Source of the DNA: a virus
DNA: 64,000 nt
IMG/VR virus record: IMGVR_UViG_3300034104_005002
Coordinates: 64,001 to 128,000 of that record
Strand: one strand, 5' to 3'
The notes under the pieces are model-generated. The model was given only the letters and a program-made list of their open reading frames with translations, had not been told where the DNA came from and made no database searches. A program made the position numbers and the translations under genes. Shown piece after piece: positions 12,901-60,626 of this stretch; the first letter of the stretch is position 1; each line of letters opens with the position of its first letter.

Positions 12901-14638
12901 CAGTCGATGCGGCAGTAATATTAAACAGAGAACCAGATGGGGCAATAAGAATTTTATTTTCTAAAACAAGATCCGCATTAAAAGTGTTCCCACTAAAAGT
13001 AGAATATATGGATTTAATATCAGAAGTTGAATAATCCTCTACACTACTAATAAGTCTTCCATTATCAATTCCATTGATTGTAATTGGTTCGTTATTTGAA
13101 AATTGACCAGAGACCTGATAAAGAAGTAGTTCTTTACTATTTGATGTATTTTGATATAAGAATCCAGAAGCATTACTCCGTTTTCCTTTAATTAGTGCAG
13201 GAGTTGCCTGTGTGATTTCAGTAGTCAGAGTAATTTTGGTAAATGTCTGAATATCGAATAGTCTTAGATCAAGAATACTTGTATTGTCAGAATACGAACT
13301 TTCAGGAACATAATCATAAACTCTTGCCACACCAATAGTAGTACCAACCGCAACTGATTTGTTGGCCCCAAGTCTACGATCAATCAAACTAACAGTAGTA
13401 TCGGTCTTAATCCCGATATAAGGAGCCCCATAAACATTGTTGAGAGCGATCAATTGACCAGCATTATATGGAATAACCTGCCTCTCTAGTGTTTTTGTTT
13501 CCCTCGTCTTAGGAACTTCTAAGAGTCTAGGGGAAATTGTTTCAACGTCATAACCATTAACATAGGCCTTTCCTGGGCCAATTTCATACACCATCACATC
13601 TTCTGATGGTGTATTTCCATTTACGGTTCTTTGTTCCTCAAAATAGATACCATTTGTTAAGGTCCTATCATTCAGGGAATCTCTTACGAATAGCGTAAAT
13701 GGCCTTACATAATAGTCACCATTAGTTTCAGCAGTTCTTCTTGCAAGCTCATCCCTGATAAGACTATATTGAGCATTTCTTTCAAAAAACTGAGGCTGAC
13801 CATTAATTACCCGAAGAATTTCAACAAAATTATCCGGATTATCATTTATATTATATTTTTTAAGTTCTAGTTCAATTTGAAATCTATCAGCACCTGGAGC
13901 CGCATAATTAGAAAAACCTTGAGAATTATCATAAAGAGTTTCATCTTCTAGAGCATTTACCACTCTTTCAATAATATTGAAGCCAACTCTGTAAGATGGC
14001 TGAGTTCCATATTGATCAAGAAGAATTCGCTGCGAATTTACTCTTGCAAAAACCCCCCTTACAAAATAAACACCAGAGGCGACATTTACAGCCGAACCAT
14101 CTGAGGTTGAATTTGCCGCAATTGTTGTGACAATTTCTTGACCAGCCTGAATGGTGATTCCGGAATATGTAATTGAATTTTCTGTGATTATTGATTCACC
14201 ATCTAGAAAAACCTTGTTTTCAAAGTTTGGCCCACCGCTTTCTAGATATTGAACGTAAAGAGTATAATTATTTCTTTCTGATAGTCTTTGATCTAAAACA
14301 TAAACAACCTTTGCACTGACTCCACTTAGAGATCCTCGGATTGTTTTTCCTAGAATTTCATTAAAATATGCAGAAACTGGAATTCCATTGAATTGGGGCT
14401 CAATTTCCACCGCATGAAATGGATTATCAATTGAAAGCTGACCTGGGATTACAACGGATCCTTCTTTAAAAATATGATTCCCAAACTGCTCTACTTGATT
14501 TTGTAGAATAGATTGGAGACTATTTAATTCTCTTGCCTGAACAGGTTGAGTTGGTTTAAATAGAACCTTGTAGTAATTCTTATCCGCATCAAAATCATCA
14601 AAATATGGAGATACGTTTAGATTGGTTTCCTGTGGCAT
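6905..14638 (-). CDS. Large virion structural protein (DUF4815/VrlC-like)
   Basis: MPQETNLNVSPYFDDFD..YYKVLF.P..PVQAREL N-terminus, DRFKSGFFVDDF, DPLAQSF; position between gp8 and gp13. Confidence 0.85.
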   Translation of the reverse strand: MPQETNLNVSPYFDDFDADKNYYKVLFKPTQPVQARELNSLQSILQNQVEQFGNHIFKEGSVVIPGQLSIDNPFHAVEIEPQFNGIPVSAYFNEILGKTIRGSLSGVSAKVVYVLDQRLSERNNYTLYVQYLESGGPNFENKVFLDGESIITENSITYSGITIQAGQEIVTTIAANSTSDGSAVNVASGVYFVRGVFARVNSQRILLDQYGTQPSYRVGFNIIERVVNALEDETLYDNSQGFSNYAAPGADRFQIELELKKYNINDNPDNFVEILRVINGQPQFFERNAQYSLIRDELARRTAETNGDYYVRPFTLFVRDSLNDRTLTNGIYFEEQRTVNGNTPSEDVMVYEIGPGKAYVNGYDVETISPRLLEVPKTRETKTLERQVIPYNAGQLIALNNVYGAPYIGIKTDTTVSLIDRRLGANKSVAVGTTIGVARVYDYVPESSYSDNTSILDLRLFDIQTFTKITLTTEITQATPALIKGKRSNASGFLYQNTSNSKELLLYQVSGQFSNNEPITINGIDNGRLISSVEDYSTSDIKSIYSTFSGNTFNADLVLENKILIAPSGSLFNITAASTGISTVSSGLSTDFLRTIKAGDVVSYAVQNLDDVVYNRIVSISPTGRSFTITGITTVPGICDGRLPSSNVTVTNIVKLTSSIYSENSSLLTQLNRSNISSISLDNSEIFQRRVFSNQTITSSTILLTITDEDVFFDGFDEDKYLISYSDGTIEPLRRDKFSPVGNSGKQVQFTGLTKASGTATVIATVKNIKPNSKAKTLNKANVLTISNSKLTSSGIGTTTLNDGLTYSQVYGTRVQDDEISLNVPDVVRVLAVYESSSTSDPQLPKLQFGSFSGQTNSNQDLFIGEQITGKTSGAVGLIINRIGVDEIEYVYLNTFKFAEDEIITSKESKIQATVLSRTLGDNNVTQNFIFDDGQRETILDYSRIVRKRNVIEPSKKLKIVFQNYTIDANDTGEFVSVNSYQNEDFKHNIPYINNVRLSDYIDLRPRVAPYSASSRSPFEFISRNFAADGQYSNYVLAPENNLILSYSYYLPRIDVVFLNPNGTFEVVQGTPSDTPQLPEFKANAFDIAVLNIPPYVYDVKNILVNMSEHKRYRMDDISLLEERISRVEEFTVLSALESKTENFVIKDAETGLDRFKSGFFVDDFKNHAYHDLENPNFKSSIDKEKKILRPLHYTTSLDLQLGSEAISGIGQTFDPNADQSFVSDLGSIGIKKTGDLITLDYDEVVFHEQQFATKTESVTAFLVRYWSGLLNLNPPLDTWVDEKAITTNSFNRVRSVNRLPNANITVVNNVTENDVVFRKAPNSQAGIQPFDWIGNAQKRLAQGGKFDVAGAASQGSRRALVIGKNFRGETRTLEIVNGNTIRIDGLHWRTGDLALLTKYVPADVANQFINRMQAGGFAGRGGALEFTPPTIAETRKTSTTTKSTSNTITTVTPERIVERETQTSSLSHYTEPVRYLRNRNIEFVSKGLKPRTRFYPFFQGVDISNYVTPKLLEVEMVSGKFVVGETVVSDPTFTSQNVSFRLCTPNHKEGRFNNPTETFRFNPYNQQSFERSYSETSAVLNVDTRSMELASETRFFGQVAPRMRIIGRTSGAVATIRRIRLLSDNSGTLIGSFNVPDPNVRGNPRWINGENNFILIDTPSLDQIKLVEFIPNSRINESSAEAEFTSSAITNIAETNILTTRNIKIIPPRNINTTTITNVTTNTTTVSQNVVPSSVQIQQPYDPLAQSFYVFEDTGVFLTSVDVYFETSDSDNVPVTLQIRPLLAGVPSNIVVPFSEVTLTPDQINLSINGSVPTKFTFPSPVYLQGPQQQTVRQAPIASESSAEYAIVLISNSPNYRVFVTELGQNDIQSRIRITKQPTLGSMFKSQNGTVWTPSQLEDLKYKIYRAQFKNEGILKFFNPKLDIGNGKKTVTGPNQFEFLTKRIIVGLGSTGYSSVVQEGVTITQGSASATLIGISGRITTGAGAGTTISNVGFGYTNGTFTNVNLVTETGFGLGAVATVGVANSVIGSINITNGGIGYKVGDSLLIPPLGQGLGINGRITVTNIASPNTFVLDEVQGTFNVGVSTVNFINSSGISSAIGAGITVTSITEDQFFDGLHMKVYQQNHGMHSFENYVEINDFRPLNSDTNSTTSSEITSTQNTIPLQSSAGFNIFEGVTVSPINPGYAIIGNEVIRYTAISGNTLTGVTRAVDGTQAIAYANNTFVYKYEFNGVSLRRINKIHNFAEVDSANTGKFPIDLNSYFIKIDMSDTDFDGKSIGTNRENNLYFRQHVQGGQSGIVISNNIQYESITPNIASIIPAKTNISTKIRTFTGSSVGGNEKPFIDRGFEIIPLDTQTYFTEPKLICSSVNEERFITNSPGNRSLSFEMLFTTDDTRVSPVVDTINTSVALTSNLINNSNGIGELATYSTDTLVRGDNDSHEAIYISKPTRLKIPANAIKVILSASRNDLNDVRVLYQIFRDDESNVNPSFELFPGYKNYVVDGFGIKRVIDVSKNDGSSDSFVKETSDRTFKDYEYSVDDLPDFNAFAIKIVMASSNQATPPLIRQLRAIATIKPRI

Positions 14639-19200: not shown

Positions 19201-19415
19201 ATGTCTGATTTATAAATCAGCTCTTCCCCGGTTATAAAATTGTGTTGAGTAAAGATGAACCAATCTTCTGTCAAATTTATAAATGATGAAGAATTTCCAA
19301 GAAATTCTCTAGAAAAAATAAATCTATCGTTTGATTTAAGTTCAAACGCAGTCCCACCAGAGAACTCACCGCTAACATATTCACCATAACCAGAAGAAAA
19401 GGAAATATTGCTCAT
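16245..19415 (-). CDS. gp7: Baseplate wedge initiator, C-terminal part (gp7-like)
   Basis: FSGRVFLRSG, DDISQQFDG, VIETVKIGD, YSWGRI motifs typical of the C-terminal region of cyanophage gp7. Confidence 0.7.
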   Translation of the reverse strand: MSNISFSSGYGEYVSGEFSGGTAFELKSNDRFIFSREFLGNSSSFINLTEDWFIFTQHNFITGEELIYKSDISPIKIIPTVISGITTDILPSKLYAVKVDVSTIRVSATKEDSLLAEPIYLDLDDYGSGNHSISSKDPNKNTIITLNNIIQDPIVSTAITSFILESINDSDLSVPVNNPNIFKGGELFKIDDEYFRVLSVGVGTTNNLFFERELLGTVGVSHTSNSVVTKVKGNYNIVDSFIHFTYPPYGNFFDLENGLTNGSTFSGRVFLRSGIKNTDKGPYDTNYIFDDISQQFDGLTKSFNLKVNESDVTGISTDNTILTINDVFQPPSRLTGNPIQGAYVLEENVGVTSITFTGNTNFAEYDVNLTELPRGGIIFSVASTEGFGYQPLISAGGTAIVSAAGTIRSISIGYSGSGYRSGIQTVNVGVGYSNVVGVDLEIIGTATISSGGITTVVISNPGSGYTSTNPPSVYFDAPLTYSNIPLIYSSGSSGVGTEARINIVVGQGSSVIDFTLDNFGYGYQGGDILTIAGIPTTSSANFKEFKITVDKIFNDDSTVRTIGELIIFDPIDNQFNGRRRAFSLRLNGQQTAILAKVGSDLNVENSLLVFIDTVLQVPRESYEFDGGSILTFKEPPRIGSKSTILFYGGTDNVDTELREVIETVKIGDTLTIFDNVDRFRDQNSRTVQDIISADTARTNIYNRQGISVDDEVRPVEWCPQNVDKFISGILVTKDRIIYESLIYPTAFAISGIGSTSSEIFVDNVKTFFDNANESPVTNNIRIISQAVQEQCLLSAVVSVAGTISSINIDKPGFGYFSTPQVSISPPVGLGTTAMATATAQINSSGIVTSVNIINSGFGYTSTSPVYVIVESPRQIIEIAEEVSYQGDFGIISGIGTTTGSIIFDLYIPKESYLRNSTINQVGAGISGSSGISTGYYFYVSNTSVGSTISSLDSGNNVIGISTQFIDNVYQVVSTTTKQKVVIGVGLTTVSEVVVKVNNNSSLVGVAGSGYYGDYSWGRIYNVSKSGSSEFDYYAPGITTSTVIQRLNPLKYLDYLV

Positions 19416-22400
19416 GGAATTAATGTATCGGATCTTCTAAATCGTGAAATTAAATTACTAAAAACCCTAACTTCATAATCAGAACTACTAAAGGGGGTAA
19501 AATATATTTCTAAATCGCCATTGACATTTGAATATTCTACTTCCAATTGTCCTATTGAATTTTGTATATTTAGATCACCAAATTCCACTGAATATATTTC
19601 TTGATTTGAACTATTTAACATGGTTAATAATTCCGTATAATTGATAGAACTTGAATTATTATCTTGAATTAATATTTGATGCGAACCTGCCTTAAAATCA
19701 TTATCATAAGAATAAATCAGGGTTTTTGAAGTAGTAGCCACGCCAACATAAGAACTATCTAATTTATTTCCACTAATAATAAAAGAACTAGTGCTAGTAG
19801 ATGTTGTACCTGAGATTTCAATAGACAAAGAATTTACTTCATACGGCGCGGAGCTGTTCGGTTCTACATCAATTTTAACTTCTGAATTTTCTAGGTAAAT
19901 ATTATATGATCCCACACCAGAAGGATTTCCCATATTTAAACCACCATAAGAATTATAAATTACATTTGTCCCATCATGAACATAGTTTATTTCATCAGAA
20001 TAATAGTTTCCATTTTCTTTATCGGAATATACAATAAGAACCTTTGCTGCAGATTTTGAATCTGGAATACTTAATATTGTATTAGTACTTGTCCCAACTC
20101 CAACTGTTTTGTGTGAATTAATTTGTACAACATCACCTAAAGAAATGGAACCAAGTTCATCATCAGAATCACTGATATTGAATGAAAAACTATTCACAGA
20201 GTAGACTTTATTAGAAATATCAAATGGGAAAAATTTAAGATTAATATTTAGACCATTAACCTCGGCGTTGAATGTTCCTAATTCCTTTATGGAATCATTT
20301 ACAGCATATTGATTTATTGACACAATGATGTCATCGTGCAAGAGATTAATCAAAAGAGACTGAGAATCCTGAGGATCAATTCTATCAAAAATGTGAATAG
20401 TGTACTTTTTAAATCTATATAAAAATTTATTAAAAGTATCAATATCTACATTATTTTCTCTTATAACTGGTAAAAATTTATCAGAAATATCGTCAATGAG
20501 AACAACTTTATTACCAACTGATTCAATATAATTTTGGATTCTTTTATTATTAAAGTAGATTTCATTTGAACTTGTTACACCATCAATATCAAAATAATTT
20601 TCCGTGACCAAATCAAAGTCATAGACACAATTCACATCTAAAACATTTTGAATATCATTGATAACCTCAACTGTTCCAAGACCTTGTTCCGTGTTGAAAC
20701 CAACATTATCGTGAGTCGTGTTGATTAAAAGATTTCCAAATTTTTTAAAACCAGCAGTGTGATTTAATGAATCAACGGTATCAGTCCAATCCACATATTG
20801 TTCTTCGGATCTTAAATCATATGAAAAATATTGATAATAATCACTATCATGCAGTCTTTGAAGAGAATCATTTAAGAACCCTACATTGCTATTCCAGCCT
20901 TTTTGTACGACTGAACTTGGTTCAATATCAATATATGCTTCCGGTAAATATGCATAAGTAACCTCGGAATAGTTCTTGCTTGTTACTCCAAAAATTATAT
21001 CATCAGTATTGATCTTATCTACTGAAATTACCTTGAGAATAGAATTATCAACATCCCAATTAATAACTTCACCAATCTTATTAGAAAGAGTTCTAAATTT
21101 TTCACCCCGAAGATAAATATTGGTTTTTAGTTTAATATCGAAAGAGGGTAGATATTTCTGAGGAATAGCGAAACCACTAGTATAGAAATCATCTACTGTT
21201 CCTGGATTTATTTGATCTAGGGCGAATGTAAAATTAGCCAGGCCACCAATATTAGCATTTCCGGAAAGAATTTCAAAATATTGATACCCATAATTACTTG
21301 AATTATAGCCAGAACCACTAATGGCAGAAACTCCTTCAATATAAACAAATTCGCCAGTAGAAAATGGAAATTCATCAACACTATTAAAAGGATTTTTTAA
21401 TTGAACCGTTACAATTTTTGTTCCGGAGTTAAAAGTGATTGCGGAAATTTCAAACCCATTATCATTATTTACTGGAATTATTTCAGCACCATTATCTGTA
21501 ATTTTATTTGTATTTTGAATTATTTTAACCAGATTTGAATCTAGATCATAATCTAACTCCGCAGTATGAGGGATTCTCGTTGTTTTATCAATCAGAATTA
21601 AATCTGGAGCAAATGAATATCCAAATCCTCTTTCAGTTACTGTAACTGACTCCAACTGGAACAATCTCTCAATTCTTAAAATTTGAGGAAGATTTGCCTT
21701 TGGTCTAATTGTATAATCAACAGTATAATCAAAACCAATATCTAACTTCTTAGTATTTTCAATTTGGCCAATATCGCTAGAAATTGGATTTATTACAGCA
21801 TCAGTTCCAGATTGTGTTTCAATTTTATCTATTACTGGCAGGGTATTTGAATATTCTATATTAGTTACTTTAATATTGTGAATAGGTCCAATAGCAGTCT
21901 TAGAATTTGTTGTGTAAGTTATTGAATTTTGATAAGAATTTGCCTCTGGATAATCAAAAAGTTCATAAGAGAAAGTGGTGGAGCCAACTGAAATGATTTC
22001 ATGTGGCCCAGAATATTTGCTATCTATTTTTTGTAAACCAAAGGCCTCAATTTGCTCTAAGTCAAAAGATATTTCTCTTTTAATGACCGGGGCTTCCGAA
22101 GTTGGGATGATAGCATAATATAAATTATCTTTAATATTTTCAGTGGTTAATTTATATTTTGCGGTACTATCAATTCCAACTATTCCTTCTTGAGCCAGAT
22201 TATATGTAAAGTACTCATTAATCAGGTCTTTATCTTCATATAACCTTAATGTAAATGCCGGAAAGATTTCCCCAGAAATTGTATAAGAAAGTGAGGAATC
22301 AGAAACATCAAAAATAATATTTTGATTTTTAATAATTTCTATTTTTGGATTTATTGAATAGAAGAAACCCGAACCGGAAGAAGTCAGATTAATTTCTTCT

Positions 22401-25400
22401 AGTGGGGGTGTCACCGCATCATAATAGGAATTGGCCAGTTTAAACTGATTTTTAGTGATGGGAATGACATAATACATTCCCTGGCCTGTTAATCCACCAA
22501 TAGGAGAGGTTTCATTATAAATTACTTTTTCGCCAAGTCTAAATTTATGATTATTTGATGTAATAACATTAGTTAAAACATCAATAGAATCTATGAATCT
22601 TTTATTGACACAGAATCTTCGATTATGATCATTATAAAAAATACTGTAACTTGTGGTAATTCCACTTACAACATTAACATTTACTTGGTCAAGAAGACTT
22701 AAACCGTGATTGGAATTTGTGATTACATTTACTTTATTATTTGAAATATTTGCAATAAAATTACCCTCAAAATTTGTTTTGAAACTATGATTATCACTGG
22801 TTCCTATTGAAACAAAACTTAATTCATTTCCTGATTGTCTTGTGGTGGAAATTGAAATGAGATCGTTGTTAATTTTGTTTACAAATAGTTCCTGATTTTC
22901 TAGGAGGGTAGTCGTCCCAATTCCACTAAATGAAACTTGAATTGGACTGCCACCGTTACTGGAATAGAATAGAGAATTTCCAGAAACTAGTTGGTGATTT
23001 TCTAGTAGTATAGTCTTATTAGGAATAGTGAGGAATGTAACACCAAGACCAGGATTTGAGAAAAATACAGTAGAAATACCTACTGTTCCAATTCCTAAAG
23101 ATTCTACTGGATTAAAATAGTATTCCCGATTCAATTTAAAATTATAATAAGTAGAAATACCTATATTAAATGTAAGTTTTCTTGAATCTTCAGAAAGAGT
23201 TGTATTTATTGGGTAAGTAGAAATGCCCACCGAAGACCCACCATATCCTCTCTGCACTTTAATTCTAGATGCTTTTGAATCAATTGAAAGAACTCTTACT
23301 TTTTCGTTATTAATGATAAAAACATCATTCTCTTTAAGTGGGAAATTTAAATTACCATCTACACTAAAATATGTGACGAATCCAGTAACAGCCCCCGGTT
23401 CAACAGGAGCCGATAGTGACAGAGTAGTTTGAACCGGAGTTGCTTTTATTTTTTTGTTGAGTTCAAATTCTGAATTTAGTCTAAAGGGGGTAGTGGTTTC
23501 TATATTATGTGGATTTTCAAAAAGGCCGATATGTGAGTTTTTAAATGGAATGATTTCTAGACCAGAAAATGTTGTATGAGAAACACCAATTGAATAAACC
23601 CCGACACCTTGAATTTCATTAACTCTCGCAATTGTCCCATCACTTAAAGTAATAGAATCTTCAACTTTATAATTACTTCCAGATTCAACAATTTCAAAAC
23701 CATCAACAAAAGAAGTTTTGGTTTTTATGATCTCTAGAGATTCTTCTTTTATTTTATTCGGATTTAAGAGGAATTCATATCTACTGGTATCATTTAATAG
23801 TTTATATGGGGTGGTATTTCTTAAAATCTTATTTCCCAGATCTTCAAACTTGTCAATTTGTGATGTTTTTTTATTTTTATATGTTGGACCAATAATATAA
23901 GGAAACACTGGAGTAAAATAATTAAAAAATGGCCCAGAACTTGCAACAATATTTGAAATGGTGCAGAAGTACGCATAGGTTCCTTGGGGAAATTCTGGAG
24001 TAATACAGAATCTTCCATTATTCTCATCGAGGTCTCCACTACCATCAAACAAGTAATCATCCACAAAAAAGCCAATAGGGAAAATAGATAATGGGGGTCT
24101 ATTTTCTTGACTTAGTTCAGTTGTGGTTTTTATTCTATAGCTAGATTTAAGAGCCCTTACCTGTCCAGAATTTCCATTTGCATAACTATAGGGTCCGTAG
24201 ATGGGATTTCCATCATAGGCCCAGCCAATAAGGGGGGAATGTGCATTTGAGGCAATTTCTTTCCCCTGAACAACGTTTAAATCTCTGACATTTACATTTC
24301 CGACTTTTCTAAGTAGGGATCTTCTTAGTGATCTTGGAGCATAAAGATGGGTATATTCAAGAGAATTCACGTTTCTTGCCAAGAAACCATCATCTTTTGT
24401 TATATTTTCACCCGATATTAATTTTTGTACTAGATTGACTCTTCTTGAGGCTATATTTACATTAAACTTTGCATTAAAGCCTTTTGGAATTACAGAAATA
24501 ATAGTATTATCTGGATTAAGATTTTGTCCACCATTAACAACAATTACTTGAACTAATTTTCCTTCAACAATAACAGGAGTTAAATTGACCCCGGTATCCA
24601 CCGGACCAACAACTAATTCTGGAATTTGCTGGTATCCACTACCAGAGGAGTTGACAATTACTCTAGAGATAGAACCGTTTACGATAATTGGAGTTACTTG
24701 GGCATTTCTTCCTTCTTGTATAATTAAATTGGGCTTTCTTTGATAATTTAAAATATTTGCTGAACCATAATTCTGCCCGCCTTGATCTATTTGGATAGAT
24801 TGAATTTTACCAGAAAATACCGGCTGAATTTGCCCTCTAAAATCTTGCCCCAAAAAAGAGGAAATACCTATTCTTCCAGAAAGCTCTACTTTAATTTCGG
24901 GATAATTTAGATAATGATTTCCAGAAGGTAATGATAAAATATCTACATACTTTTTCTTTTTATAATTGACATCGGCTCTTTCAATTGAAGAGGTATCTGA
25001 AAGTCTAATTTGATCGTTATCAATGACAGTAACGTAATATTGAGTAGTCTGGGCAAGACCAACAATTGGTGATCCAGAAGTCTTGTATTCAACAATCTCA
25101 CCAGAAACATATCCATGATTATTAATAATCAAAGAATCTGATGCAGTATTAATTCCAACAATTTTTACTCTCTTATTTTTATACCCGGAACCAGAATTTG
25201 TGACTTCTATTCTTGAAATTTTTTTCTTTGAACTAATCGAAGTCAATGAATGAATTCCGGTCCCAATTCCACTTAAATTAATTGGGGCAGATTGATCAAG
25301 AGCAAAGTATAACTGAACTCTTTTTGCATCAAGAGGCTTTACATAGTATTTTGAGTTTGTATCAATACCTATAACATTCTTTTGGTTGTCGGTTCTATAA

Positions 25401-27838
25401 ATAACCTCTTCATTATCTGCAAATTTGTGATCCTCGGTAAATACAATAATGTCATTTATAGTATCAACCGCTGTCTCTGAATTAAATTCAACAGAATGAA
25501 TAAATGAAACCAATTTTACTGTGGCTTCGGCACCCGCACCATTTCCGCCTGTGATTTTAATTTGTGGAACATCAAGATAATCAAACCCTGGATCAATTAC
25601 ATCAATTCTCTCAAGAGAGCCCTCAACCGCAACAGATAATGAGGCCCCAGTGCCAACTGTGTCAACAACATTTATTGTGGGTGGTTGAATTACATTGTAA
25701 CTATCACCACCATCTAGAACATCAACAGATGTAATAGGTCCATAGAAAGATGAATCTTCTGATTTAAAGTTTGAAATTTCAACCCCATTAATTAGAATAC
25801 CAACAGTTCCGGATTCAGTAACCTCTTCTTTGTCCTTTAAGATAGGAGATTCTAATTTTTTAATGATATTTTGTGGTCGAAGTGGAAGCCTATTGAAATT
25901 TAAGTCATTAAAACCTAGGGGCTCAAGAGAACCATTTGAGATTTGCCCAGAGAAGACAACAAATTCATTAGAAATAATATTTTCTGGGCTTTTTGCTAGT
26001 CTTATTGTATCTATAGAAACAACAAAAACAATATAAGAACCATCCGTTGCGATTGAATTTTGGTTTTTAAGAACAACAGATTCCCCTGTAAACAGGCCGT
26101 GTGGTCTGGAAAATACTATCTGATTTAGGCCATCATAATCACCAGAAGGAATGGTCAGAGTAAAATCGTTGATTTCAAGAGGAAATCCTAGATATGTTGG
26201 GAGAGACGGCGACGAAACATAAACACTCTTATCATAATCAGTGTAAATGTTTTGAACATTTGAATTAAAGATGCTTATATTAGAATATTTTTCAGACTGG
26301 ACATTTACTTTTGAAATATTCTTTCTTATGGTATAAGATAAAATCTCGCTTAACGGACCAGTACCCGTGATAATTACGATTTTCTCATTTTCTACAAAGT
26401 TTATGGTTCCATTATAGTTTGAATCATCAGAGGCGTAGAGAGTAAAGGAATCGCCAATTACGAAATTATGTTCATCAAAAAGAGAAACCCTATAAGAAAA
26501 ATTAGAAGAATCTTCTATTATAATTGCCTGAACATCATAGGTAACTGAAATATTAAAGAACCAGTTGTTAGCCTTCAGTTCGGAAATGTCTTCGCCTAAA
26601 GTCTTGATTTTAATTTTTTCTTTTGGCTCATAATAGAAGGTATTGTCAATATAATCAATATCACCAAGTACCCCATTTACAAACAATTCAACTCTATTTC
26701 CATTGTTATCCAATCCATAAATCAAATTATCAATTTTAATTTCTGATTTTTCTGGAATAGTATTTGAAATACCAGAACAATCTAAAAATTGATTTAAAAC
26801 CTTACTTTGATAAGATACTGTTAAAATTGTTCCATCTTCTAGGTTGATTTTTAACTCACCAGAATCTGGAAACCCAACAGTTGAATCAACATCAATATGG
26901 GCTGATCCTGAATTAACTCTAGAAGTGGATAATGTTTTGGGGTGAATACTGAATTCACTTTTTACTGTACCAGATGCATCCACATCTCGATTATAATCAA
27001 AATCAAGACTAATAATAAAATATTCTTTATTGTCTCTTATGATCTTGGTGGCCTCAATAACCGTCCCCTGGGCTGGTTCTATGGATGAAGTAGCATCCTG
27101 ATAAAGAGTGGAATTGATCAGACCATAAGGATCGCCAGAAATAACCTCCACTACGAGGTCCTTGGTGACCCTATACTGGGCATCTGATGGGCGAATTAGA
27201 AAATCTCTTGGCTTGATAACATCAACAGGCTTACCATAAAGAGCCCCGAACAACATTCTAAAAGATTCATCAGAACCCTTAGAAGAATAAAAAGACTTGG
27301 CATTTTTTGCAAAATTAGATGCATTTAGACCGGAGAAGAATTTTCTATCTTCAAATCCCGGAATAATTTTCTTTTTGGTTTGTATTGCAAATTGCTGAAG
27401 ATATAGGGCACTCAAATTTAAAACAATAGATTCACTTGAATGTCTCTCACTTTCTGATTCAGAAAATTCTAGGAACTTTCTATCAAGTTTCGTAATTCCA
27501 CTAAATCCTCTGACACAACCGATAAATTGAGTCTCTGATTTTGATTTATAAAAGATAATTTCATTATTGATTTTAATTAGACCATTATTATCCGGAAATC
27601 CTTCTGTGGAATCAGCAGTAATTGTGGTATCATTAAAACCGACATTTTGATCTAATATTGCCTCTAATCGAATATTAAAGACTACATCTAGATCAATATT
27701 TTTATCTAAATTTTGAATAAGTTCTTCCGATTTGTCGGAAAGATAATATTGACGAAGGAATTCCGAAAATAGAGGATATTCTTCTCTTACAAAAAGTGGT
27801 AATTGGGAATCTACAATCGTTGAAACGGGAATTCTCAT
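19412..27838 (-). CDS. gp7: Baseplate wedge initiator, N-terminal part (gp7-like)
   Basis: SQLPLFVREEYPLF, FYSSKGSDESF, HSPLIGWAYDGNPIYGP, DLDENNGRFC.TPEFP.GTYAYF, DSDYYQYFSY, HTAGFKKFG. Confidence 0.85.
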   Translation of the reverse strand: MRIPVSTIVDSQLPLFVREEYPLFSEFLRQYYLSDKSEELIQNLDKNIDLDVVFNIRLEAILDQNVGFNDTTITADSTEGFPDNNGLIKINNEIIFYKSKSETQFIGCVRGFSGITKLDRKFLEFSESESERHSSESIVLNLSALYLQQFAIQTKKKIIPGFEDRKFFSGLNASNFAKNAKSFYSSKGSDESFRMLFGALYGKPVDVIKPRDFLIRPSDAQYRVTKDLVVEVISGDPYGLINSTLYQDATSSIEPAQGTVIEATKIIRDNKEYFIISLDFDYNRDVDASGTVKSEFSIHPKTLSTSRVNSGSAHIDVDSTVGFPDSGELKINLEDGTILTVSYQSKVLNQFLDCSGISNTIPEKSEIKIDNLIYGLDNNGNRVELFVNGVLGDIDYIDNTFYYEPKEKIKIKTLGEDISELKANNWFFNISVTYDVQAIIIEDSSNFSYRVSLFDEHNFVIGDSFTLYASDDSNYNGTINFVENEKIVIITGTGPLSEILSYTIRKNISKVNVQSEKYSNISIFNSNVQNIYTDYDKSVYVSSPSLPTYLGFPLEINDFTLTIPSGDYDGLNQIVFSRPHGLFTGESVVLKNQNSIATDGSYIVFVVSIDTIRLAKSPENIISNEFVVFSGQISNGSLEPLGFNDLNFNRLPLRPQNIIKKLESPILKDKEEVTESGTVGILINGVEISNFKSEDSSFYGPITSVDVLDGGDSYNVIQPPTINVVDTVGTGASLSVAVEGSLERIDVIDPGFDYLDVPQIKITGGNGAGAEATVKLVSFIHSVEFNSETAVDTINDIIVFTEDHKFADNEEVIYRTDNQKNVIGIDTNSKYYVKPLDAKRVQLYFALDQSAPINLSGIGTGIHSLTSISSKKKISRIEVTNSGSGYKNKRVKIVGINTASDSLIINNHGYVSGEIVEYKTSGSPIVGLAQTTQYYVTVIDNDQIRLSDTSSIERADVNYKKKKYVDILSLPSGNHYLNYPEIKVELSGRIGISSFLGQDFRGQIQPVFSGKIQSIQIDQGGQNYGSANILNYQRKPNLIIQEGRNAQVTPIIVNGSISRVIVNSSGSGYQQIPELVVGPVDTGVNLTPVIVEGKLVQVIVVNGGQNLNPDNTIISVIPKGFNAKFNVNIASRRVNLVQKLISGENITKDDGFLARNVNSLEYTHLYAPRSLRRSLLRKVGNVNVRDLNVVQGKEIASNAHSPLIGWAYDGNPIYGPYSYANGNSGQVRALKSSYRIKTTTELSQENRPPLSIFPIGFFVDDYLFDGSGDLDENNGRFCITPEFPQGTYAYFCTISNIVASSGPFFNYFTPVFPYIIGPTYKNKKTSQIDKFEDLGNKILRNTTPYKLLNDTSRYEFLLNPNKIKEESLEIIKTKTSFVDGFEIVESGSNYKVEDSITLSDGTIARVNEIQGVGVYSIGVSHTTFSGLEIIPFKNSHIGLFENPHNIETTTPFRLNSEFELNKKIKATPVQTTLSLSAPVEPGAVTGFVTYFSVDGNLNFPLKENDVFIINNEKVRVLSIDSKASRIKVQRGYGGSSVGISTYPINTTLSEDSRKLTFNIGISTYYNFKLNREYYFNPVESLGIGTVGISTVFFSNPGLGVTFLTIPNKTILLENHQLVSGNSLFYSSNGGSPIQVSFSGIGTTTLLENQELFVNKINNDLISISTTRQSGNELSFVSIGTSDNHSFKTNFEGNFIANISNNKVNVITNSNHGLSLLDQVNVNVVSGITTSYSIFYNDHNRRFCVNKRFIDSIDVLTNVITSNNHKFRLGEKVIYNETSPIGGLTGQGMYYVIPITKNQFKLANSYYDAVTPPLEEINLTSSGSGFFYSINPKIEIIKNQNIIFDVSDSSLSYTISGEIFPAFTLRLYEDKDLINEYFTYNLAQEGIVGIDSTAKYKLTTENIKDNLYYAIIPTSEAPVIKREISFDLEQIEAFGLQKIDSKYSGPHEIISVGSTTFSYELFDYPEANSYQNSITYTTNSKTAIGPIHNIKVTNIEYSNTLPVIDKIETQSGTDAVINPISSDIGQIENTKKLDIGFDYTVDYTIRPKANLPQILRIERLFQLESVTVTERGFGYSFAPDLILIDKTTRIPHTAELDYDLDSNLVKIIQNTNKITDNGAEIIPVNNDNGFEISAITFNSGTKIVTVQLKNPFNSVDEFPFSTGEFVYIEGVSAISGSGYNSSNYGYQYFEILSGNANIGGLANFTFALDQINPGTVDDFYTSGFAIPQKYLPSFDIKLKTNIYLRGEKFRTLSNKIGEVINWDVDNSILKVISVDKINTDDIIFGVTSKNYSEVTYAYLPEAYIDIEPSSVVQKGWNSNVGFLNDSLQRLHDSDYYQYFSYDLRSEEQYVDWTDTVDSLNHTAGFKKFGNLLINTTHDNVGFNTEQGLGTVEVINDIQNVLDVNCVYDFDLVTENYFDIDGVTSSNEIYFNNKRIQNYIESVGNKVVLIDDISDKFLPVIRENNVDIDTFNKFLYRFKKYTIHIFDRIDPQDSQSLLINLLHDDIIVSINQYAVNDSIKELGTFNAEVNGLNINLKFFPFDISNKVYSVNSFSFNISDSDDELGSISLGDVVQINSHKTVGVGTSTNTILSIPDSKSAAKVLIVYSDKENGNYYSDEINYVHDGTNVIYNSYGGLNMGNPSGVGSYNIYLENSEVKIDVEPNSSAPYEVNSLSIEISGTTSTSTSSFIISGNKLDSSYVGVATTSKTLIYSYDNDFKAGSHQILIQDNNSSSINYTELLTMLNSSNQEIYSVEFGDLNIQNSIGQLEVEYSNVNGDLEIYFTPFSSSDYEVRVFSNLISRFRRSDTLIP

Positions 27839-56662: not shown

Positions 56663-56761
56663 AATGAATAAAAGTTTGTTGGTGAATTCAGGGCTTTCCC
56701 CCTGATGAACCTATTATGCCAAGGGAAAGGGGGGCATGGAAGCCCCCAGTGGCCAGTTTGT

Positions 56762-57094
56762 TTATCGGCCCATCGCAGACCGAATCTTCATTTCAATCCG
56801 TTCATCGAGTTTGGCCAGGATATAGTTCTCAAGCTGAGAATCCAGACTATTTTTGATGTCAGTTGAAACCATTTCAGTCATTGCCGGAATCTGATAGCGT
56901 TTTAGATAATTAGTCATTCTCTTTGAGAATGGGTCAGACTTAAAGTATTCCTCGACTGCATTATTCATCGAGGTTGTATCTGGTTTGGCGGTCTGAATTT
57001 CTTCATAAAGATAACGAAGAGCATTCAACAGATTAGAAAATTCGACCAGTTGATCGTTCACGTTCACTAGAGCCGGGACAGTGGTTGTTTCCAT
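56762..57094 (-). CDS. Helical hypothetical protein co-transcribed with E1
   Basis: 110-aa ORF 6 nt downstream of the ThiF gene. Confidence 0.75.
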   Translation of the reverse strand: METTTVPALVNVNDQLVEFSNLLNALRYLYEEIQTAKPDTTSMNNAVEEYFKSDPFSKRMTNYLKRYQIPAMTEMVSTDIKNSLDSQLENYILAKLDERIEMKIRSAMGR

Positions 57095-57100
57095 AATAAA

Positions 57101-57814
57101 TCAAGAAATAGAGGTGGACAGAGTGCGGCCATTAAAAAACATTCCGCTTTGTTGAGGATTAAGCACCCCATCAAGGAAGTTTTGAATCACCGAGAGAGTA
57201 ATCGCGGCAGCAAAGAAATTTGCCGAGATCAATTGAGGCCTAGAAGGTGTACTCAGAGCACAGGATCCCTTTTCTGGGATGCTGTCAATAGGGTTACTGA
57301 TGTTGGGATAAGCAATACTAGGATCCATTCCAACACGTTCACCATTACATTTACCAAACCAAAGAGTCTGGCCCTGTACTGATTCCGTGCCGTCACTATT
57401 ACCTGGGGTAATAAAGAAAAAATCTTTATCAGAACAGGTAGTAGAGATTGCCTTTAGAACATCATGTCGAGTTGCATCATTGTCAACAGAACAAACAATC
57501 AGAGGAGACTCTGCTCGCTCCAGAAGAGGAATGAAAGAAGTCATTGAAATAAAATCTTCCTTGCAGTCAACATTTTCTAGACCTTGAAAGGCACAGAAGT
57601 CTACCATTGCGCGGGCCTTGTTCATGCCAATTTGTGATGGGCCTACAATTTGACGAGTTTGGTTGTGCTCTTCAAATTCATCACCATCAATAAAAACTAC
57701 TTTGGCGTTTTCTGTGGCCGGATGGTGCGCAACAAGACGGGCAATAGGTGATGCAAGATAGCCGCCAGTGCCACCTACTCCTACAATAAAAACGGTGTCA
57801 GGATTGAAATTCAT
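57101..57814 (-). CDS. E1/ThiF-family ubiquitin-like activating enzyme
   Basis: VGVGGTGG, IDGDEFEEHNQTRQ, NKA, SVDNDATR, GSCA (candidate catalytic Cys), PQL..N..AA. Confidence 0.9.
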   Translation of the reverse strand: MNFNPDTVFIVGVGGTGGYLASPIARLVAHHPATENAKVVFIDGDEFEEHNQTRQIVGPSQIGMNKARAMVDFCAFQGLENVDCKEDFISMTSFIPLLERAESPLIVCSVDNDATRHDVLKAISTTCSDKDFFFITPGNSDGTESVQGQTLWFGKCNGERVGMDPSIAYPNISNPIDSIPEKGSCALSTPSRPQLISANFFAAAITLSVIQNFLDGVLNPQQSGMFFNGRTLSTSIS

Positions 57815-57883
57815 GATTTAAGGTGAACTACTTTGCAAGTATAAAGGAGAAATGGGAGTGAGAAGCGAGGAGATGGACAGTTT

Positions 57884-58924
57884 TCAGGCTGTCACAAAGG
57901 ATTCATCTAGCTGGCCAATTAGGTATCCTTCAGAAGAAATATACCATTTGCGGCCCACCGCATCTTCTTGAGTAGTGTAACCAAAATAGACCGAATCTTC
58001 TTTTTGAATTGTAGAAGTTTTTGCTGGAATGATCATTACATGCGGAGCTTCTGGAATTGGAGTAAATCCGGCCATCAACATCGTAAAGAATGCCTGAACG
58101 TCCTGATCTGCATCAATCATAATCAGACAATCATAACCAGAACACAAGAATTTATGATCCGATTTATGGTAATTACCACATTCTATAGAATCTTTTAGGG
58201 CATTGATATTTTCTGTAAATCTAGCGAGCCTAAGAAGATCATTATTGAAATTTGACTGAAAGTAGGAACTAACAATTCCCCGAAGATTCGCCGGAGAACT
58301 CACTTGCCCCCAACAGATTTTTCCATATATGTATCCAGTTTCATCTCTCTGGTCTGAACTGTAAACATTTGCCGCAGCAAATGAAGATGTCTGATAAATT
58401 ACACCCTCTTCATAATAACCGGCCCGGAGGTGGGCATTATCTCCTTGGTAAACTTTTTTAAAACGAGGTGGGGTTCCTTTATAATTCAGTTTAATATCAA
58501 AGACCATATTGGAAATGGAGATTTTCTTTTCCTCTTTGGGTTTAGATTCATGGCCTTCCATACAGTGTTGGCCTGTATAACCATCCCACCATACGTCACA
58601 TTCTGTTTGATTTTCCCTGGCATTCCTAAAGAATTCTGTTGACTCGTTTTCATCATAGCTGCCGTCTTCTGCAAACACATTTGGATATGTGGTTTTCAGG
58701 TATTGAGTGGTTCGTCGCGGGCAATACTGGCAGTGATTGCTATAAAAATCTTCATATTCGTTATAATTTGGATCAACTTCGCCAAATTCAGAATAATTTT
58801 CAGGCATCCAGGCCCTAATTGTAAGGGCCTGGGAATCTACCCGATAGGAAATAAATTCCGCTTCAGAGGGAAGCAAGTGAGTGTTTACTTTGGCCGGATT
58901 TGTGGGAAAAATAGGATTCATCAT
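57884..58924 (-). CDS. Prokaryotic E2-like conjugating enzyme (Prok-E2 D/PRTRC-B-like)
   Basis: ANVY...GKICWG (candidate catalytic Cys) followed by YFQSNFNNDL; lies between JAB and E1. Confidence 0.7.
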   Translation of the reverse strand: MMNPIFPTNPAKVNTHLLPSEAEFISYRVDSQALTIRAWMPENYSEFGEVDPNYNEYEDFYSNHCQYCPRRTTQYLKTTYPNVFAEDGSYDENESTEFFRNARENQTECDVWWDGYTGQHCMEGHESKPKEEKKISISNMVFDIKLNYKGTPPRFKKVYQGDNAHLRAGYYEEGVIYQTSSFAAANVYSSDQRDETGYIYGKICWGQVSSPANLRGIVSSYFQSNFNNDLLRLARFTENINALKDSIECGNYHKSDHKFLCSGYDCLIMIDADQDVQAFFTMLMAGFTPIPEAPHVMIIPAKTSTIQKEDSVYFGYTTQEDAVGRKWYISSEGYLIGQLDESFVTA

Positions 58925-59871
58925 ACCTCCGCAAATTGGTGATCTTCGATGTAAACAGAAAGCAAGGCCATAAGTTCTTCAATCTCTTCTGGGTTTCCTT
59001 TGTTTTGTTTTAGGAAATCCTCGATTACGTCTTCAATTTGATGGAGTTTAATAGACTCTTTTTCAGGTGTTTGATAGCCCTGAAATTCATCCCAAAGCTC
59101 ACTAAAATCTCCATTGATATTGTCCTTAAAACCAAATGGAGACTTGTAATTGTAACCATTCCAATTGGTTCTTTGATTGGAGGAGTATTTGGTGACTACT
59201 GGTTTAGAATAATCAACATAATCAAGAACGTCTTCATGGAAAGTAAACCCTTCAAGTGGTTCGGTTTCAATAAGATCTTTATGGGGGATCTTAAAGCGCC
59301 GACCATTTGCCACAACAGAAGAAGCAATAGCGTAAGTCCGATCTTTGGCACTAATGGATCCAACTACAATATGAATTCCAGGATCTCCCAGTTCATACTT
59401 ATCATCGGTGCCCGAAAAGAAGGCTTGCATAGTGTTGTGGCTGTGGGAAGATCCAACAGGAATCCAGCCAATCGGAGGATAACTTGTAATGACTTCTCCA
59501 GTCTCAATGTCAATAGCATCATCAAATCTATCAACCCTCACAGATGTGGCAGATACTTTCTGTTTGGGAACAAGAATCCGATAAAGAGAGGGATCTTCTT
59601 CGCTGCGAAGAATACGAACCGAAACTTCTACATTAGAAGGAACTTTTTCAATAAAGTGAAAACAAAGCTGCACCCACCGTTGCCACAAATCCGCCGGGAT
59701 TTTGTGAATGTCTTCATTAAGAGTGAATGATTCTAGATCTTCTTTGGAAATAATTACGTTGGCATCTGGATCATCGGTGGGGCGAATGTACGTTCCCCAA
59801 CCACCAGTATAAAGTTCAAAACATCCATGCTTGGCGGTTCGTAGAATCTTTGGGATTTCTTGTGTTTCCAT
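58921..59871 (-). CDS. JAB/MPN+ (JAMM) metallopeptidase
   Basis: EVSV.., VPKQKVS, GSSHSHNTMQAFFSGTDDKYE (HxH-x7-S-x2-D). Confidence 0.88.
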   Translation of the reverse strand: METQEIPKILRTAKHGCFELYTGGWGTYIRPTDDPDANVIISKEDLESFTLNEDIHKIPADLWQRWVQLCFHFIEKVPSNVEVSVRILRSEEDPSLYRILVPKQKVSATSVRVDRFDDAIDIETGEVITSYPPIGWIPVGSSHSHNTMQAFFSGTDDKYELGDPGIHIVVGSISAKDRTYAIASSVVANGRRFKIPHKDLIETEPLEGFTFHEDVLDYVDYSKPVVTKYSSNQRTNWNGYNYKSPFGFKDNINGDFSELWDEFQGYQTPEKESIKLHQIEDVIEDFLKQNKGNPEEIEELMALLSVYIEDHQFAEV

Positions 59872-59891
59872 AATAAAGAGAAGAAGTTTAC

Positions 59892-59918
59892 AAAAAAGGC
59901 CCTTGTTTCAGGGCCTTT
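59892..59918 (-). terminator. Intrinsic terminator upstream of the JAB gene
   Basis: AAAGGCCCT-gaaaca-AGGGCCTTTTTT on the minus strand. Confidence 0.75.
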
Positions 59919-59919
59919 G

Positions 59920-60235
59920 TGGTTTTTGGACTGTATCAGCCGATAGATTTTTGCTAACTTGCGTTAACAATGCACAAGTAATTACTTACTTGAGGGGCTA
60001 TCTCCCAAAGCCTCAAGAATTCTTGAGACGCTGTTGTTTTTGTGTTTTAAGTACCAACTAGCTTCCAGAGGGCTCAACTAGCCTGGATTTTGTTTATAGG
60101 ATTTTTATAGTTAACTTGGCTCTCGTCAACTGTTGAATTTTACTTCAACAAATCTATTTAATAAAGTAAAAACCTATTGATTATAGGATTTTATTTGTTA
60201 GCTAATGTTTATTTTTGTTAATAAAACACTAACTG
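59920..60235 (-). ncRNA. Structured intergenic RNA candidate in the Ubl operon
   Basis: No convincing ORF; at least 6 consecutive hairpins and a long-range ATAGATTT/AAATCTAT pairing. Confidence 0.4.
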
Positions 60236-60236
60236 T

Positions 60237-60503
60237 TTATGAACCCTTGCTTTCGCTTGTGATAGCACCACGCACGGTTTCACCGGGCCGAGGCTGAGTG
60301 TCCGAAGGGACAGATTCGCCATTGATCACATAGGTAGTGATTCGGGCCACATCTACACCAAGACTAGAGCCATATTCAGCAAAGAGTTGTGAAACAGACT
60401 TGCCGCGAGCATTTTCAAAAGGAACTTGCACGCTTTCGGTGTTCACGGTAAGGACAACCGGAAGGCTGGTGTCCATGGTACGAACGTTTTGGAGAAATTG
60501 CAT
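60237..60503 (-). CDS. Ubiquitin-like beta-grasp protein
   Basis: VVLTV..VQVP..GKSVSQLF..TYVING..V......PGETV; C-terminal SKG-S; heads the JAB-E2-E1 cluster. Confidence 0.78.
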   Translation of the reverse strand: MQFLQNVRTMDTSLPVVLTVNTESVQVPFENARGKSVSQLFAEYGSSLGVDVARITTYVINGESVPSDTQPRPGETVRGAITSESKGS

Positions 60504-60626
60504 AATAAAGTAAAAGAGGTAAACGACAGTTGGTTTGTTGTGGTGTGAGGTGTCCCCCTCACCGACCTTTATAAGATAACAGGGGCTGGAGGGCTTTTTG
60601 GCGCCCTTGGGCCAGTTTGAGGAGTG

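Follow-up and report, generated by a model that had tools for sequence, protein, structure and literature searches.

A viral gene cassette resembling ubiquitin-like protein-conjugation systems in a T4-like jumbo cyanophage

A five-gene cassette in a cyanophage record

The DNA analysed here (the window) is a stretch of 64,000 nucleotides (nt), bases 64001-128000 of a single 161,054-bp IMG/VR virus record of linear class (IMGVR_UViG_3300034104_005002), whose completeness is ∼68% according to CheckV. At positions 56762-60503 it carries a cassette of five co-oriented open reading frames (ORFs), all on the minus strand. These encode, in order of transcription, an 88-amino-acid (aa) beta-grasp ubiquitin-like protein (Ubl; 60237-60503), a 316-aa JAMM/MPN+ (JAB) metallopeptidase (58921-59871), a 346-aa protein resembling ubiquitin-conjugating enzymes (E2-like, UBC superfamily; 57884-58924), a minimal 237-aa ThiF/MoeB-type activating enzyme (E1; 57101-57814) and a poorly conserved, all-helical protein of 110 aa (56762-57094). 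An earlier note on this DNA, made from the letters alone, had described such a co-oriented set, and we found the five ORFs and the quoted motifs in place. The stop codon of JAB overlaps the start codon of the E2-like gene by 4 nt (ATGA), and only 6 nt separate E1 from the 110-aa ORF. Small non-structural genes surround the cassette.

The record also contains T4-like structural genes, among them those for baseplate wedge subunits, a tail sheath stabiliser and head closure proteins. Its gp6 homologue is 79.7% identical to gp6 of Synechococcus phages B23 and B3, which belong to the Kyanoviridae and have genomes of ∼244 kb. The carrier is a Kyanoviridae-like, T4-like jumbo cyanophage.

Ubl, JAB peptidase and E1

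The identities and folds of Ubl, JAB and E1 are well supported. The AlphaFold model of the 88-aa protein, built from 20 homologues, reached a predicted local distance difference test (pLDDT) score of 75 and showed the beta-grasp order of elements followed by a disordered tail. Its top structural matches were all ubiquitin, SUMO, ISG15, MoaD or a bacterial Ubl, and it also matched SAMP1 and TtuB; model and matches agree with the beta-grasp assignment made earlier. Pfam gave a weak match only (Ub-Mut7C, E 0.0038). Across more than 20 homologues, E84, K86 and G87 are invariant. The protein ends in ...TSESKGS, so that the invariant Gly87 is followed by a single Ser88, and in 20 sequences the corresponding glycine is followed by zero to two variable residues (nothing, S, A, F, VA, LG, VY or LF). 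The SKG-S terminus singled out by the earlier note is therefore a conserved glycine with a variable trailer. Type II Bil Ubls are alike in this respect, having a universally conserved Gly and then non-conserved residues (PMC10557695).

The 316-aa protein contains the complete JAMM motif that had been proposed for it (HSHNTMQAFFSGTDD), and nine full-length homologues all keep E82 and H143-x-H145-x7-S153-x2-D156 unchanged. Two family models recognized it below their cut-offs: Pfam Prok-JAB (E 3.6e-5, 24.1 bits versus a cut-off of 25) and TIGR03735 PRTRC_A (E 1.5e-5, 24.7 bits versus 101.8). A search of its profile against Protein Data Bank (PDB) sequences returned nothing significant. The JAB core is preceded by a conserved N-terminal domain of ∼130 aa and followed by a variable acidic tail; the N-terminal region is reminiscent of 'JAB-N', a domain found in operon type 6d (PMC1779556). 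Relatives with a Ubl that already terminates in Gly retain JAB too.

In three related phage contigs, group I introns (Rfam RF00028, 57-63 bits, gathering score 50) lie inside the JAMM motif of the JAB gene (L008:5160-5400, L009:5164-5404 and L003:4674-4997). Exon 1 of the split gene ends in ...GSSHSH plus a stop codon, and coding picks up at NTMQAFFS.... The JAB gene of the window is intron-free. More group I introns were detected at L014:11074-11269 and L003:10824-11021.

The 237-aa protein, previously called a ThiF/E1, passed the Pfam cut-off for ThiF (PF00899; 34.1 bits versus 28.1), and its adenylation motifs were verified (GVGGTGG and IDGDEFEEHNQTRQ, with GSCA further downstream). Conservation extends over the motifs GxGGxGG, DGD..E..N.TRQ, NK and VDND, all invariant in the family; by residue, the alignment keeps G12-x-G14-G15-x-G17-G18, D43-G-D45, N51, R54-Q55, N65-K66, D111-N-D113 and C185. 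Both Cys185, in the GSCA motif, and Cys74 are invariant. The best curated match was TIGR03736 PRTRC_ThiF (E 3e-12, 46.4 bits versus a cut-off of 144.75), followed in NCBIfam by ThiS adenylyltransferases. Among the PADLOC models, those of CBASS Cap2-type E1-E2 proteins scored best (2.6e-11), with a match confined to the first ∼70 residues, and BilD reached 21.5 bits (E 2e-5). The protein has no rhodanese domain, ubiquitin-fold domain or separate Cys domain.

A diverged E2-like protein with two extra modules

The 346-aa protein has 60 near homologues, and a profile search of 1.84 billion proteins yielded 156 representatives of its family at 50% identity. Over 111 representatives Asn186 and Cys204 are the sole invariant residues, and W205, G206, N227, D229 and L230 are nearly so. 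They fall in the segment AANVY...GKICWG...FQSNFNNDL. Pfam Prok-E2_D (PF14460) matched 14 of the 111 representatives and PRTRC_B matched 9. Two of them, P0208 (27.1 bits) and P0212 (26.6 bits), exceed the 25-bit cut-off of Prok-E2_D, and the match falls on a motif shared with the phage protein, Y..ANVY.DG.ICWG...LR.AY..FW.S.FN.DL. When the family of the window protein was aligned by hhalign with the Prok-E2_D-positive subgroup containing P0208 and P0212, the two were linked at 99.2% (E 1.8e-19) over 154 columns, covering residues 34-235 of the window protein. The connection of the phage protein to Prok-E2_D is transitive, through this subgroup; a search of the six-frame translated genome with Prok-E2_D gave no match, nor did a search of PDB sequences with the profile of the 346-aa protein at E up to 10. 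Fused longer forms of the protein (Rosetta-stone evidence) were not found, a result that the tool itself rates as weak.

The AlphaFold model of the E2-like protein (pLDDT 89) begins with four strands forming a beta-meander (14-49), followed by a helical insert, a beta-rich insert, the ANV loop and Cys204. Past the cysteine come two helices (214-223 and 233-248) and a C-terminal domain, the last part of which is an SH3/Tudor-like barrel (∼300-346). Four invariant cysteines in the helical insert (C65, C68, C109 and C121; Cys4) probably bind zinc. N186, C204, N227 and D229 make up a catalytic-type core. In classical E2s the motifs of the UBC fold are laid out as HPN...C...helix 2...NPxDPL, and the arrangement ANV...C...helix...FNNDL appears to parallel this in order and spacing. 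From profiles and motifs we conclude that this is, very probably, a prokaryotic E2 of diverged sequence with two extra modules and a putative UBC fold.

The 110-aa protein is all-helical and matched no family in Pfam, NCBIfam, PHROGs or PADLOC. It is unlikely to be an enzyme, because its alignment contains no invariant polar residues.

Distribution of the cassette

We compared the cassette with 11 distinct related loci. The order Ubl-JAB-E2-like-E1 was found in every related locus with enough DNA, including contigs of 224-284 kb and IMG/VR viral contigs, and is also kept around distant members of the E2-like family (L023 and L024). This shared order indicates that the genes are grouped by more than chance. 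The 110-aa gene follows E1 in most related loci, with no match in L015 and L017. Identity to the window proteins is highest for E1 (61-81%), then JAB (49-72%), Ubl (48-64%) and the E2-like protein (36-56%), and ranges widely for the helical protein (22-86%); the catalytic motifs are invariant across these loci.

The cassette is essentially viral: in a scan of 185,579 prokaryote species, with one genome each, the E2-like gene was found solely on one 4-kb contig of a metagenome-assembled genome (MAG). Its distribution among related cyanophages is patchy. In B3 and B23, the latter being the closest cultured relative among those searched, a tblastn search of the phage collection detected homologues of neither E1 nor the E2-like protein, and searching the B23 genome directly gave the same result; on these grounds we regard the cassette as an accessory module of a sub-lineage. 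No match was obtained when the cassette was compared with known phages by blastn, when the E2-like protein was compared with phages by tblastn, or when a distant member of the E2-like family was compared with plasmids by tblastn.

Distant E1 homologues (24-29% identity) occur in the 217-kb Bacillus jumbo phage vB_BauM_KLEB27-3 (L022, OM634661.1:167647-169897), where the ThiF protein adjoins a protein annotated 'PRTRC_A domain-containing'. Others are encoded, amid hypothetical genes, on non-mobilizable plasmids of 110-225 kb from Clostridium, Thermoanaerobacterium and Bacillus, one of them being Clostridium argentinense plasmid pRSJ17_1 (L021).

Individual related loci have features of their own. 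One (L014) contains a full E1 gene (7064-7777) and, ∼1 kb downstream, a repeat of the sequence for the 31 C-terminal E1 residues (8804-8896) that directly precedes the gene for the helical protein; this points to a mobile insertion that duplicated the target end. The same locus encodes several tRNAs and a permuted transfer-messenger RNA of cyanobacterial type (L014:1687-1945; RF01851, 104.8 bits) a few kb upstream of the cassette, which fits a cyanobacterial host. In another, a jumbo-phage contig, a ClpS-domain gene lies ∼5 kb upstream of the cassette (L003:730-1023); this might be a link to proteolytic targeting or a coincidence.

Relation to known systems

The gene set had been likened to PRTRC-type and Bil-type operons. 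The parts list is indeed comparable, but the cassette belongs to neither: the curated models failed and ParB is not present. We regard it as a distant relative of PRTRC and 6d-type operons. With PRTRC, the ParB-related, ThiF-related cassette (TIGR03734-03742, among them TIGR03735 PRTRC_A, TIGR03736 PRTRC_ThiF, TIGR03737 PRTRC_B and TIGR03738 PRTRC_C), it shares stand-alone genes for Ubl, JAB, E2 and E1, and PRTRC models are the best-scoring curated ones for the cassette E1 and JAB. PRTRC operons, however, are carried by plasmids and integrative and conjugative elements (ICEs) rather than by a lytic-type phage, and the cassette E2-like protein is ∼120 aa longer than the 228-position PRTRC_B model, adding the Cys4 insert and the C-terminal barrel. 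PRTRC_B matched none of the window proteins, PRTRC_C and PRTRC_E had no match in the genome, and ParB_N had none in the 161-kb record (∼68% complete) or adjoining the cassette in related loci.

Operon type 6d was described in bacteria by Iyer, Burroughs and Aravind in 2006 (PMC1779556). Its Ubl is likewise small and keeps a Gly at the C-terminus, its JAB bears an additional N-terminal domain, its E1 is free of rhodanese, its E2-like protein stands alone and has a conserved Cys but lacks the His of HPN, and a largely alpha-helical protein is also encoded. By contrast, neither the absolutely conserved downstream His of 6d E2s nor the absolutely conserved charged residues of the 6d helical protein were seen in the corresponding phage families, and 6d is bacterial whereas the present cassette is phage-borne.

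Bil (BilABCD, Types I and II) is a bacterial, ISG15-like anti-phage conjugation system, whereas the present cassette is encoded by a virus. Among the PADLOC Bil models only BilD gave the weak E1 match noted above, and the other cassette proteins gave none. BilD is a large multidomain E1 and the cassette E1 a minimal one; no CEHH-type E2 signature is present. Bub (6E/DUF6527) is likewise a diverged prokaryotic E1/E2/Ubl pathway with a dedicated protease, but its E1 and E2 have no catalytic Cys, it uses oxyester chemistry and its protease is of Ser-His type (PMC11601596). The cassette has an invariant Cys in both enzymes (Cys185 of E1, Cys204 of the E2-like protein) and a metalloprotease of JAMM type; with no DUF6527 match either, membership in Bub was ruled out. 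The TAPI (Ubl) and TAPK (JAB plus NlpC/P60) proteins encoded by lambdoid phages and by T1-like ones also place a phage Ubl with a conserved Gly beside a JAB (PMC1779556), but they have no E1 or E2 and are sited in the tail-assembly cluster.

By analogy, the cassette may be likened to PRTRC, 6d, Bil and Bub in its working; it is a member of none, and we consider it a new, phage-borne variant. In the literature we found no characterised phage-encoded E1-E2-Ubl-JAB cassette, although this search was incomplete and an earlier description is possible.

Proposed mechanism and alternatives

We consider it rather likely that, in this cassette, the T4-like jumbo cyanophage owns a module for ubiquitin-like protein conjugation. 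In such a module the JAMM peptidase would remove the residue after Gly87; in relatives whose Ubl ends in Gly it would act mainly as a deconjugating isopeptidase. The ThiF-type E1 would adenylate Gly87 with ATP and may hold the Ubl on Cys185, after which the E2-like protein would take it over as a thioester on Cys204. Asn186 would take the role of the HPN asparagine, and the loop with N227 and D229 that of the NPxDPL loop of classical E2s. The Ubl would finally be joined to a lysine of a target protein. The Cys4 insert and the SH3/Tudor-like barrel may confer on the E2-like protein its own substrate recognition, and such built-in modules would explain the missing separate ligase (E3). The 110-aa protein could be an adaptor, a regulator or a substrate. 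The chemistry of each step, the direction in which the Ubl passes, its targets and what the phage gains are all inferred. The system had been called complete: Ubl, JAB, E2-like protein and E1 are all present, but no E3 is identifiable, a role that the extra domains of the E2-like protein may fill. We counted in favour of conjugation the intron positions described above, which lie precisely in the JAMM motif, given that group I introns typically home into conserved, functional sites.

Several points weigh against this reading. The E2 assignment made earlier is supported by profile-profile homology to the Prok-E2_D-positive relatives and by the invariant Asn and Cys, but not by any direct family match, the 346-aa protein having none in Pfam, NCBIfam, PHROGs or PADLOC. 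Owing to an insertion its Asn186 and Cys204 are 18 residues apart, whereas classical E2s and the Prok-E2_D-positive relatives have a spacing of 8. Structural searches with it returned nothing useful, either by Foldseek against the PDB (best E 0.08, template-modelling (TM) score ∼0.1) or in the ESM Atlas (shape TM at most 0.26, feature scores at most 0.87). The E1 is too diverged for its profile to match significantly the sequence of any solved E1 in the PDB. Neither an E3 nor a target is identifiable, and to our knowledge neither this family nor PRTRC-type systems have been studied by experiment. The record being ∼68% complete, absences of genes from it are provisional. Finally, the predicted complex of E1, Ubl(1-87) and E2-like protein gives only weak support and adds little alone: with the E2-like protein as the scored partner, the three-chain prediction reached 0.37 versus 0.01 for the best of three controls, with a contact agreement between runs of at least 0% and a partner pLDDT of at least 80. 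In the calibration, 58 of the 80 solved complexes and 2 of the 110 mismatched pairs reached the mark; the passes with scores no higher than 0.60 comprised just 7 of the 80 complexes, plus both mismatches.

The only characterised role of prokaryotic Ubl conjugation so far is immunity against phages that the host encodes (Type II CBASS, Bil and Bub); here the virus owns the machine, and the carriers are large T4-like cyanophages whose hosts are primary producers of global importance. An active cassette would raise the testable question of what a bacterial virus gains by tagging proteins, and it would offer for mechanistic study a compact 237-aa E1 together with an unusual E2 with built-in extra domains. 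A narrower proposal, possible but doubtful in our view, is that the E2-like protein is a self-contained E2/E3 hybrid whose Cys4 insert and barrel pick the substrates, and that the phage Ubl tags cyanobacterial host proteins during infection, perhaps so as to disable or redirect host machinery or immunity. If this were true, the cassette would be the first case of host takeover by a ubiquitin-like system in a virus of prokaryotes.

Other explanations were considered. Instead of tagging host or phage proteins on a broad scale, the machine could ligate the Ubl to a lipid, a nucleotide or a small amine, as Atg8 is to phosphatidylethanolamine, or to itself or a partner, as in the case of CBASS Cap2 and its cyclase. 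The strongest PADLOC matches of the E1, to Cap2-type models, and the lack of an E3 would suit such chemistry, for which the conserved 110-aa partner could serve as a single dedicated substrate. The resemblance to Cap2 models nevertheless stops after the first ∼70 residues, no nucleotidyltransferase or effector gene lies beside the cassette, and the zinc-type insert and SH3/Tudor-like barrel look like modules for recognizing proteins. We hold a non-protein or self target to be improbable.

The minimal ThiF/MoeB architecture of the E1 raises the alternative of a sulfur-carrier pathway, to which we give a slim chance. The adenylated Ubl would there be converted to a C-terminal thiocarboxylate delivering sulfur to an acceptor such as a cofactor, a metabolite or a base of tRNA or DNA; JAB would only unmask the Gly, as in CysO/Mec+ systems, and the 346-aa protein would not be an E2. 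ThiS adenylyltransferases as the next-best NCBIfam matches of the E1 and MoaD, SAMP1 and TtuB as matches of the Ubl model point in this direction, and E2-less sets of JAB, E1 and Ubl are known in sulfur assimilation (PMC1779556). But the 346-aa protein, with its invariant E2-type Asn/Cys motif, is never missing, and its translation is coupled to that of JAB. The earlier note had seen no sulfur-carrier genes nearby, and this was borne out: no rhodanese, PP-loop thiolase or other sulfur-transfer gene was found in the 161-kb record (∼68% complete) or beside the cassette in the related loci examined.

An equally slim chance attaches to a phage-carried defence, exclusion or selfish maintenance module that tags the components of competing phages or acts as an addiction system, in the manner of the Bil or PRTRC cassettes that bacteria carry on mobile elements. 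This is a question of purpose rather than of mechanism, every biochemical step being common to it and to the conjugation module proposed above. It would accord with the plasmid and ICE origin of the nearest curated families, the PRTRC models, with the patchy spread among related cyanophages, and with the distant pairs of ThiF and PRTRC_A-like proteins in phage-like plasmids of Firmicutes and in the Bacillus jumbo phage. Yet ParB and other PRTRC partner genes are missing, and the carriers are lytic-type T4-like phages, not prophages, and among the 185,579 species genomes just one small MAG contig has the gene.

Least credible is a counter-defence centred on JAB, with the isopeptidase stripping host Bil- or CBASS-type Ubl marks off phage proteins and with Ubl, E1 and E2-like protein as decoys or regulators of the host's conjugation enzymes: the tail proteins of phages are indeed tagged by host Bil, Type II CBASS likewise relies on conjugation of a Ubl-like kind (PMC11601596, PMC10557695), and JAB is kept where the Ubl of relatives already ends in Gly, but the invariance of the E1 and E2-like catalytic residues in a family diverged to ∼20% identity argues for active enzymes, and B23 manages without the E1 and E2-like genes.

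Non-coding elements and other features of the record

A GC-rich hairpin on the minus strand (GTGAGG-N6-CCTCAC, 60545-60562; 6-bp stem, 6-nt loop) lies ∼42 nt upstream of the Ubl start codon and is a possible regulatory or RNA-stabilising element. Early-promoter palindromes had been proposed for both the Ubl and the E1 gene; upstream of Ubl this hairpin does form such a palindrome, its promoter role being putative, but nothing comparable exists in the 69-nt spacer before E1. Sites resembling those of sigma-70 were not commoner than in shuffled sequence. At the other end, a terminator-like hairpin with a T-rich tail (GGGGGC-N6-GCCCCC, 56730-56747, minus strand), 15 nt past the stop codon of the 110-aa gene, probably marks the 3' end of the cassette transcription unit. 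Counting a further one at 56688-56705, three GC-rich hairpins alike in geometry (6-bp stem, 6-nt loop) and unlike in sequence occupy intergenic spacers at both ends of the cassette, possibly as a recurrent transcript-boundary element of the phage.

Ubl and JAB are separated by a highly structured non-coding spacer of 365 nt (59872-60236, minus strand), which is AT-rich, contains several perfect palindromes and folds at -99.4 kcal/mol (z-score -6.6 versus shuffles). Close to its end, ∼24 nt ahead of the JAB start, a terminator-like hairpin (59895-59918) is followed by a T-run. The corresponding spacers in relatives measure only 57-124 nt; the 365-nt spacer is unique in its genome and its sequence is absent from the related loci. 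An Rfam scan of the cassette region, spacer included, matched zero families. The spacer could be a small RNA, an attenuator setting the ratio of Ubl to enzymes, or the remnant of an insertion. A plus-strand ORF of 230 aa (59038-59730), antisense to the conserved JAB gene, was rejected as a shadow frame.

Elsewhere in the window, two giant minus-strand ORFs of 2577 and 2808 aa lie amid the baseplate genes (6905-14638 and 19412-27838), near the gp6 homologue. In B23 the gene annotated as a gp7-like 'baseplate wedge initiator' is likewise ∼8.5 kb long.

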